A stretch of DNA of 64,000 bases from IMG/VR virus record IMGVR_UViG_2627853701_000009; one strand, 5' to 3'. Of this stretch, positions 26,433 through 27,751 are shown piece after piece. The stretch comes from a virus. Its lineage: Duplodnaviria; Heunggongvirae; Uroviricota; Caudoviricetes. Numbering within the stretch: position 1 is the first letter of the stretch; each line of letters starts with the position of its first letter. The position numbers and the translations under genes are program-made. A model generated the notes under the pieces. The model worked only from the letters and a program-made list of their open reading frames with translations. It made no database searches and had not been told where the DNA came from.

Positions 26433-27110
26433 TCATCCCCGCCCGATAACCACCACTTTCCCGTCTCCGCCCTCATCACGGGTGCTGATGTCCTGGGATA
26501 TCCGTCGTGAACCAACCAGCATTTCACCATAAGGCACCGGCATCGGGTTCCCCTGGGCAATCATGTTATCCAGTGACGAAAAATACGTGTTCTGTTTACC
26601 GTTATCCGTTGCGCGGTAATCCGGTGTTTTTGCCTTCGGTGCCAGCATCTGGGCCACACCGCCCAGTATCATGCTGGCCCCCAGTGAAAACAGCATCGTG
26701 GTGGCAGAAAAACCACCGGCTGCCAGGGCTGAACCCCATAACGCCATTGATGCCCCGGCCGTGAAGAAAGAGCCCACGATGGCTGCCGCCCCCAGCACAA
26801 TCTGCAGTCCGCCCTTTCCGGCCCCGGCCAGTCGCGGCACAATATGGATGACCGCCCCCTCACCCAGAGGTTCGTGAAGACGGGCGTACACCGCCTCCGG
26901 TGCCGTGTCATCACCGGCAATACGTATCTGGTACCAGCCTTCGTTCATCTGACGGCGGAATCCCGGCACCTGTAACGACAGCGCCCGGATGGCTTCCGCT
27001 GCCGTGTTCACATACAGGCTGAGGCGGCGGCCAAATCGTTGCAAATCCCCGTGAAGGCAGATGCGTGCCAGTGGCGGTGACGCCAGACAGAATGCGTTCG
27101 TCGTTGCCAT
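26433..27110 (-). CDS. I: Tail tip assembly protein I (copy B)
   Basis: 225 aa, near-identical to copy A. Confidence 0.9.
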   Translation of the reverse strand: MATTNAFCLASPPLARICLHGDLQRFGRRLSLYVNTAAEAIRALSLQVPGFRRQMNEGWYQIRIAGDDTAPEAVYARLHEPLGEGAVIHIVPRLAGAGKGGLQIVLGAAAIVGSFFTAGASMALWGSALAAGGFSATTMLFSLGASMILGGVAQMLAPKAKTPDYRATDNGKQNTYFSSLDNMIAQGNPMPVPYGEMLVGSRRISQDISTRDEGGDGKVVVIGRG

Positions 27111-27751
27111 TTTTCGGAATACCTCTCCCGTTTACTCAGTTGTTCAGGCAGATGGTGAAGCAGTTCACCGTTGCCGCAGTATATGGCGGCATGATTGGCC
27201 ACCGATGCGCCAAAGCAGCACAGCAGGATATCGCCCGCCTGTGCAGAGGACAGGGGCACCCGGTAAAAACCAGTCGCCGCCATATTGTCCAGGTAAAGGT
27301 TCTGACCGTTGCGCCACCAGTCATCCTCACGCACAAAATCCGGCAGCGTTATCCCCGCCAGATGGTATGCATCCCGGAACAGGGTGTAACAGTCCGTCAC
27401 CCCGTGCTCAAAACGACGCCCGGTCAGGTGCGGCACACAGCGGAATTTGTGAATTTCCCCCCGGCAGACCAGCCACCAGGGCAGGGCACTCTTTATCTGC
27501 AGCCGCCGGTCGGCCTCGCTCAGCCAGGGCAGACCACCAGGGTGGCTGTGAACCAGCGCCACAATCTCCCCCTGCATCTCTGCCTGCAGCCAGTCTTCCG
27601 GCGCAATACGAAAATACGCCTCCGGCTCTGCGGAGATATTCACGCAGGGCTGGTACCGTTCGCCCTCCGGGGTGCCTATCACGAAGCCGCACTACTCCGC
27701 AGGCGCACACCGCCGGGCATGCACCAGAATCGCTGATTCAGTCTGTGTCAT
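27008..27751 (-). pseudogene. K: Tail assembly protein K interrupted by amber codon at codon 20 (TCG to TAG)
   Basis: Copy A reads ...APAESCGFV; copy B reads ...APAE*CGFV; TAG is rc of 27692-27694. Confidence 0.8.

Follow-up and report, generated by a model that had tools for sequence, protein, structure and literature searches.

An inherited amber codon in the lambda gpK-type tail gene of an ompW prophage of clade-8-type Escherichia coli O157:H7

The K gene of a lambdoid prophage in clade-8-type Escherichia coli O157:H7 is interrupted by an amber codon at position 20. The gene lies in a 64,000-nucleotide stretch of DNA, referred to here as the window, which holds two tail modules. The interrupted gene belongs to prophage B and is called copy B; the intact paralogue in the neighbouring prophage is copy A. 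The amber is very probably a plain loss-of-function nonsense allele of a gpK-type gene in the nleA prophage at ompW, propagated by vertical inheritance and conversion, with K provided in trans by paralogues. The lesion is already recorded in RefSeq as a pseudogene and is nothing new in kind. Its one modestly informative aspect is that there is evidence of this nonsense allele passing from one co-resident prophage to another.

The proposed course of events is as follows. Translation would enter K from L and end after 19 residues, directly past the JAMM glutamate, and neither the JAB nor the NlpC/P60 domain would therefore be made by copy B. Prophage B, compromised earlier by an in-frame deletion in J, would be unable to build its own tail tip, gpK being required for lambda tails. 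The allele would be passed on vertically within an L-K tract of which at least one other resident prophage has an identical version and copy A a near-identical one. Conversion could either erase the stop without a trace or copy it into another prophage. K function for particles would be supplied in trans by intact paralogues. The features concerned are listed in Table 1.

Table 1. Coordinates of the features discussed, given as positions in the window.
Feature	Position	Strand	Basis
K of prophage B, tail-tip assembly, lambda gpK family, pseudogene	27008..27751	-	Translation, Pfam on intact paralogue, RefSeq of TW14359
Amber TAG, directly after JAMM catalytic Glu19	27692..27694	-	Translation, alignments, PDB 2KKS
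Intact K paralogue (copy A), tail module of tandem neighbour prophage	7476..8219	-	Translation, alignment to copy B
L of prophage B, minor tail gene	27762..28460	-	ORF list, TW14359 RefSeq annotation
I of prophage B, tail assembly, lambda-type long form	26433..27110	-	Pfam Lambda_tail_I, own Shine-Dalgarno
J of prophage B, 207 codons shorter than copy A J (3185-6661) by an internal in-frame deletion	23337..26192	-	Annotation and ORF comparison
1.7-kb tract (M 3' end, L, K, I 5' end) common to a second prophage	26986..28684	-	100% identity, clade-8 genomes
Candidate reinitiation GTG, codon 24	27680..27682	-	ORF 27008-27682, anti-Shine-Dalgarno pairing

The amber codon and the protein it interrupts

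The K reading frame of copy B begins with ATG at 27751, closes with TGA at 27010-27008, and contains TAG at codon 20. Copy A is open throughout and has TCG at the same codon. Pairwise alignment of the two genes (744 nt each) gives three differences in total: the amber, a synonymous TCG to TCC change, and an ACG to ATG change that produces T247M. The amber originated from one C to A change on the coding strand at site 27693, converting Ser20 (TCG) to TAG. The original prediction had given this substitution, its position and its codon number, and had described K in copy A as intact; ORF translation and alignment bear it out on each of these points.

The intact paralogue is a two-domain protein. 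Pfam places Prok-JAB at residues 4-105 (E = 1.5e-16) and NLPC_P60 at residues 111-224 (E = 7.8e-14), and a match to PHROG 30, "minor tail protein", spans residues 1-247. The translation of copy A contains the complete JAMM motif, E19...H68-x-H70-x7-S78-x-x-D81, and the NlpC/P60 residues Cys121 and His187. Alignment with PDB 2KKS covers residues 7-109 and locates E19 within the conserved P-x-E-x-C-G. In JAMM enzymes, this Glu hydrogen-bonds, or holds, the catalytic water (PMC300881).

K has the features of the gpK/TAPK family: a JAB domain with JAMM, an NlpC/P60 domain, and a position between L and I, upstream of J, within a tail module of siphovirus type. The gene order M-L-K-I-J is found in both window copies and agrees with the RefSeq annotation of TW14359. 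Lambda gpK likewise has L upstream and I downstream, and carries Prok-JAB followed by NlpC/P60; the JAMM and the NlpC/P60 Cys and His residues are intact in the K backbone. Lambdoid relatives of K were recovered in the phage search, e.g., HK629, at ~86% identity. The difference from lambda gpK is that copy B is interrupted at codon 20, and no two-domain product is possible. Copy A retains the uninterrupted two-domain frame, whereas copy B does not. Copy B is classed as a pseudogene of the gpK/TAPK family because TAG breaks this frame at codon 20.

Codon 20 lies within the conserved part of the protein. K coverage is at least 80% in 1722 of 1763 phage records. Homologues at ~30% identity, from Klebsiella, Pseudomonas, and Burkholderia phages, give alignments that start at residues 1-8. 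The N-terminus is conserved and, by these comparisons, truly part of K. A position of codon 20 upstream of the true K start was ruled out by the Pfam and PDB alignments, which begin at residues 4-7, together with the homologues that begin at residues 1-8. In the classical lambda annotation, K begins at an internal Met and is 199 aa long. This internal Met presumably corresponds to Ile49 in window K. The conservation supports the 247-aa form of K.

The lambda protein is needed for tail assembly (PMC12617516) and is not found in virions (PMC12617516, PMC10721106). Its peptidase domains have been predicted to process the ubiquitin-like gpI (Iyer et al. 2006, PMC1779556).

Inheritance of the allele and probable exchange between prophages

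The window is assigned to clade-8-type E. coli O157:H7, and positions 14148-48497 match TW14359 at 99.93%. At least 21 independently sequenced complete O157:H7 genomes, TW14359 and EC4115 among them, match the L-K-I stretch at 26400-28500 (2101 bp) with 100% identity. RefSeq labels the identical TW14359 gene "C40 family peptidase, internal stop", and labels the gene of Balcarce_14.2 likewise. The exact amber 61-mer is present in 29 complete RefSeq E. coli genomes, all of clade-8 type, among 1592 records with the same K segment. The carrier strains originate from the USA, Japan, Korea, and Argentina. A base-calling error is excluded because 29 complete genomes share the exact 61-mer, and the amber is taken as a true inherited allele.

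A chance-versus-signal test is unsuited to one SNP, and orthologous prophages with TCG served as the control. In strains 272, ATCC 43889, and 08-3918, TCG is the sole change across the 2101 bp, and K of the orthologous prophage is annotated intact (WP_000194801.1). Strain 8_140198 has TCG and is otherwise unchanged in the compared 2.1 kb; its K is intact (also WP_000194801.1), and its L is annotated as frameshifted. Strain 2010C-3142 has TCG, an intact K, and an additional 1-bp insertion in L. Copy A and other lambdoid phages likewise have TCG. With TCG in these and in the near-identical orthologues of sister strains, the amber in copy B is by this comparison the derived state.

The L gene shows variation of its own. 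The ompW prophage of 2010C-3142 has an extra G in L at the position that matches window 28159. Both 8_140198 and 2010C-3142, which are SG8_30 strains, combine an intact K with a frameshifted L (extracted loci 1-520, 1344-2043), and the L-K defect varies between close relatives.

Subgroups of clade 8 were taken from the assignments in Table 2 of a clade-8 genome analysis (PMC9997748). By that table, the SG8_30 carriers of the amber are TW14359, EC4115, SS17, JEONG-1266, 147, 2009C-3378, 2009C-4687, and 26_141088, and the SG8_32 carriers are F765 and CEC03102. F690, which also appears in that study, is another carrier. Non-carriers, with subgroups from the same source, are the SG8_30 strains 8_140198 and 2010C-3142 and the SG8_33 strains 272 and 08-3918. 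A simple clade marker with one origin and no reversals was rejected for the strains assigned there, as carriers and non-carriers are intermixed within SG8_30 and within SG8_32/33.

The K region is shared more closely between resident prophages than its surroundings are. Copies A and B are identical over 27117-27839 save for the amber, and the flanking I and L segments are ~5% different. A third prophage in TW14359, which adjoins tRNA-Ser/hyaA and carries sodC and tccP2, has a 1,699-bp tract (the 1.7-kb tract of Table 1) that differs from copy B only at 27693. K in this prophage is the intact WP_000194801.1 (extracted locus 26344-27087). In strain 26_141088, the sodC/tccP2 prophage instead carries the amber, annotated "internal stop" (NZ_AP026090.1, 1203747-1204490; extracted locus 11973-12716), and its tract is identical to that of the window. 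The ompW copy of 26_141088 also matches the window at 100%. Both flanks of the tract diverge between the prophages.

This pattern points to gene conversion among K paralogues, and the 1.7-kb tract is likely the conversion unit by which the amber is moved or repaired. It is improbable that the second prophage acquired the identical mutation independently. Back-mutation could explain some of the TCG strains. The patchy spread of the allele among clade-8 sublineages would be expected, because conversion can erase the stop without a trace or copy it elsewhere. The stop would be a mobile lesion, shuttled by short-tract conversion among at least three co-resident prophages, and the K-defective prophage would change from strain to strain. 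This is likelier than a functional restart at GTG24, which is considered below.

The duplicated tail block as a whole (25275-33023 versus 5745-13491) has a mosaic structure. Between the two blocks, K (27012-27840) and the greater part of H, G/T, and V are near-identical, and I, L, M, and parts of H are ~5-8% different. Such a mosaic fits repeated recombination between the two prophages.

The two prophages and a possible supply of K in trans

Prophage B in TW14359 is a lambdoid prophage beside ompW with int/xis, replication, and lambda-like head and tail modules. The effector genes nleA, nleH1-2, and nleF lie beyond its tail fibres and are intact in TW14359. The copy A region (window 1-14153) is a 99.1% match to the tail module of a second TW14359 prophage, and its far end adjoins an ompW fragment and the trp operon. 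K in that TW14359 region is annotated as an intact C40 family peptidase (WP_000194802.1) and is equated with copy A by the region match. Passages of the clade-8 genome analysis describe two prophages in tandem at ompW in TW14359 and the deletion of parts of the tandem ompW prophages in some clade-8 strains (PMC9997748).

The two prophages meet in the window at 14148-14153. There the copy A module breaks off inside a gpZ-like gene and continues into the terminal ~105 bp of an ISEc8 transposase gene in the prophage B cargo. The join itself is a 6-bp microhomology, GGATCC (a BamHI site), and ~38 kb of TW14359 is missing. A search of 5,426 complete RefSeq E. coli genomes found no instance of this join. 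The tandem ompW prophages may truly have undergone a deletion here, or the join may be a chimera produced during assembly or cloning. In the window, copy A is in the same orientation as prophage B and downstream of it, and has no late promoter, Q, or head genes of its own.

The amber is not the only lesion in prophage B. Its J protein is 951 aa, compared with 1158 aa in copy A, and the missing part corresponds to window 5131-5745, or approximately residues 306-510 of copy A J. A short J of 941 aa is also found in strain 272. The J deletion is therefore older than the amber, because the short form occurs in a TCG strain. PGAP gives J of prophage B no pseudogene flag. The endolysin gene (44652-45184) is split into ORFs of 66 aa and 111 aa by a 1-bp deletion at 45011, in a C/G run. 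TW14359 and strain 272 have an intact 177-aa lysozyme, and the frameshift is specific to the window; it may be real or a sequencing error. Three more single-base deletions relative to TW14359 are found at 16853, 45880, and 46644, one of them in a T run. The four window indels suggest a lower-accuracy assembly or a recent build-up of indels in degraded regions. A DUF6645 gene is truncated in the TW14359 prophage.

The original prediction took the K amber, the J deletion, and the frameshifted endolysin together as a sign that prophage B is cryptic. All three lesions are present. The endolysin lesion, however, is confined to the window and possibly an error, and the J lesion predates the amber. 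Prophage B shows what is expected of a defective prophage, with a premature stop set against intact near-identical copies, other lesions, and retained cargo. Against inertness, the TW14359 annotation shows int, xis, and the replication, terminase, portal, and capsid genes as intact. By its gene content, prophage B is defective for its own tail, and "cryptic" overstates the case. The TW14359 chromosome has annotated internal stops in ybeQ and djlC as well (extracted locus 1798-2775, 6441-7892); such nonsense pseudogenes are common in this lineage.

Sp9 and Sp10 of Sakai, judging from their cargo genes, are presumably the counterparts of the window prophages. As in the present case, Sakai has a pool of several lambdoid prophages in which every member bears inactivating lesions at scattered sites. 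Both Sp9 and Sp10, although defective, are still able to excise and be packaged; defective Sakai prophages achieve this through complementation by other resident prophages and recombination with them (Asadulghani et al. 2009, PMC2669165). Two differences from Sakai are seen. The lambda-like head module of prophage B is annotated intact in TW14359. Furthermore, the minor-tail function of Sp9 is scored intact in the Sakai table (PMC2669165), whereas the K amber is seen only in clade-8-type genomes. The Sp9 score is consistent with an amber that arose later and is restricted to clade 8.

Trans-complementation of K by intact paralogues is plausible. For the other K paralogues and the tRNA genes of the source strain, TW14359 serves as the proxy. 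Copy A may be the poorer donor because its own late region is lost in the window. A better donor may be another prophage; its K in TW14359 is the intact counterpart of the very same allele.

Alternative readings and significance

Translation of K is probably entered by coupling to L (termination-reinitiation), because the K start has no Shine-Dalgarno sequence and is close to the L stop. The native ATG lies 10 nt after that stop, and its anti-Shine-Dalgarno pairing is +0.7 kcal/mol. A similar restart could follow the amber. GTG24 follows the amber in frame at a distance of 9 nt; a GGAG lies 12 nt before it, and the anti-Shine-Dalgarno pairing is -6.1 kcal/mol. Ribosomes that stop at TAG20 could restart there and make a K of 224 aa, without residues 1-23, that keeps NlpC/P60 and still supports tail assembly. 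The geometry is that of the native K entry after L, with GGAG in addition, and natural TAPK versions with only the NlpC/P60 domain are known (Iyer et al. 2006, PMC1779556). However, the same authors deemed these JAB-less versions probably degenerate and typical of prophages. The restart product would also lack JAMM Glu19 and the beginning of the JAB fold (Pfam 4-105), and initiation at a GTG with 12-nt spacing is weak. The restart product is mechanistically possible, but function from it is unlikely, and we consider the reading as a whole improbable. If it were true, and a JAB-inactive K worked, the JAMM site of gpK would be dispensable.

Loss of K translation would probably leave gene I unaffected. 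I and the 3' end of K have 103 nt in common, and the ATG of I at 27110 has a Shine-Dalgarno sequence of its own (anti-Shine-Dalgarno pairing of -8.5 kcal/mol). The RefSeq start of I is a GTG that overlaps the K stop (27011) and gives 192 aa. The Pfam domain Lambda_tail_I covers residues 15-97 of the 225-aa form and begins upstream of this GTG. The 225-aa I from ATG 27110 is probably the real gene, and I is probably independent of K translation. Strict coupling of I to K through the GTGA overlap was set aside as unlikely to matter, with the I domain starting upstream of the GTG and a Shine-Dalgarno sequence at ATG 27110.

An adaptive knockout of K is very improbable. A tail-less effector prophage might be favoured if this fixed its cargo, nleA, nleH1-2, and nleF, in the chromosome. 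The allele does persist in a successful lineage across several countries, and the type III effector genes that the prophage carries benefit the host. Yet loss of K stops neither excision, replication, nor lysis, and the host would thus remain unprotected. Several strains have apparently lost the allele again, and intact paralogues can complement K. Drift and hitch-hiking fully account for one SNP in a clonal lineage.

Readthrough of the amber, by a suppressor tRNA of the host or phage or as a programmed event, would restore full-length K, and its probability is slighter still. There are reports of natural coliforms with amber suppressors. The only tRNA genes in the window are a tRNA-Arg(TCT) and a tRNA with a CAT anticodon, neither of them a suppressor. 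The original prediction had raised supE-type suppression as a way out for the prophage. In the gln tRNA cluster of TW14359, which has the same amber, the anticodons are CTG, CTG, TTG, and TTG, and no supE is present. The two glnV-type genes (glnV/glnX) are wild type with CTG, and the two glnU/W-type genes both have TTG. Suppression of this kind is therefore unlikely, and for glnV and glnX of TW14359 it was rejected. Programmed readthrough is opposed by the rarity of the stop (29 of 1592 records with the K segment), which is unconserved, and by the TCG of the closest orthologues. The base following the amber is U, an efficient termination context, which also argues against readthrough.

The classical lambda K amber mutants resemble the present allele in that a nonsense codon in K blocks tails in non-suppressing hosts. 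Those alleles belong to the laboratory, where supE or supF hosts are used to propagate them. The allele described here, in contrast, is natural, and it occurs in TW14359 with wild-type glnV and glnX.

A sequencing or assembly error in place of a true TCG is next to impossible, even though the window has four single-base deletions relative to TW14359 and one of these falls in a homopolymer run of the lysozyme gene: the amber replaces a base and changes no homopolymer length, RefSeq annotates the internal stop, and the same allele in 29 independently assembled complete genomes, from various platforms and laboratories, rules error out as its source.

Loss of function remains the preferred reading, and its consequences are limited. 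The K amber marks a subset of clade-8 O157:H7 genomes and otherwise means little beyond bookkeeping. It is one more lesion in the prophage that carries nleA, nleH1-2, and nleF. In annotation, copy B of K is best called a pseudogene and should not be split into ORFs. The allele would serve as a small, clean example of how defects may be repaired or spread between paralogous prophages. This is relevant to the use of prophage SNPs in outbreak typing and to judging whether a prophage can be mobilised.
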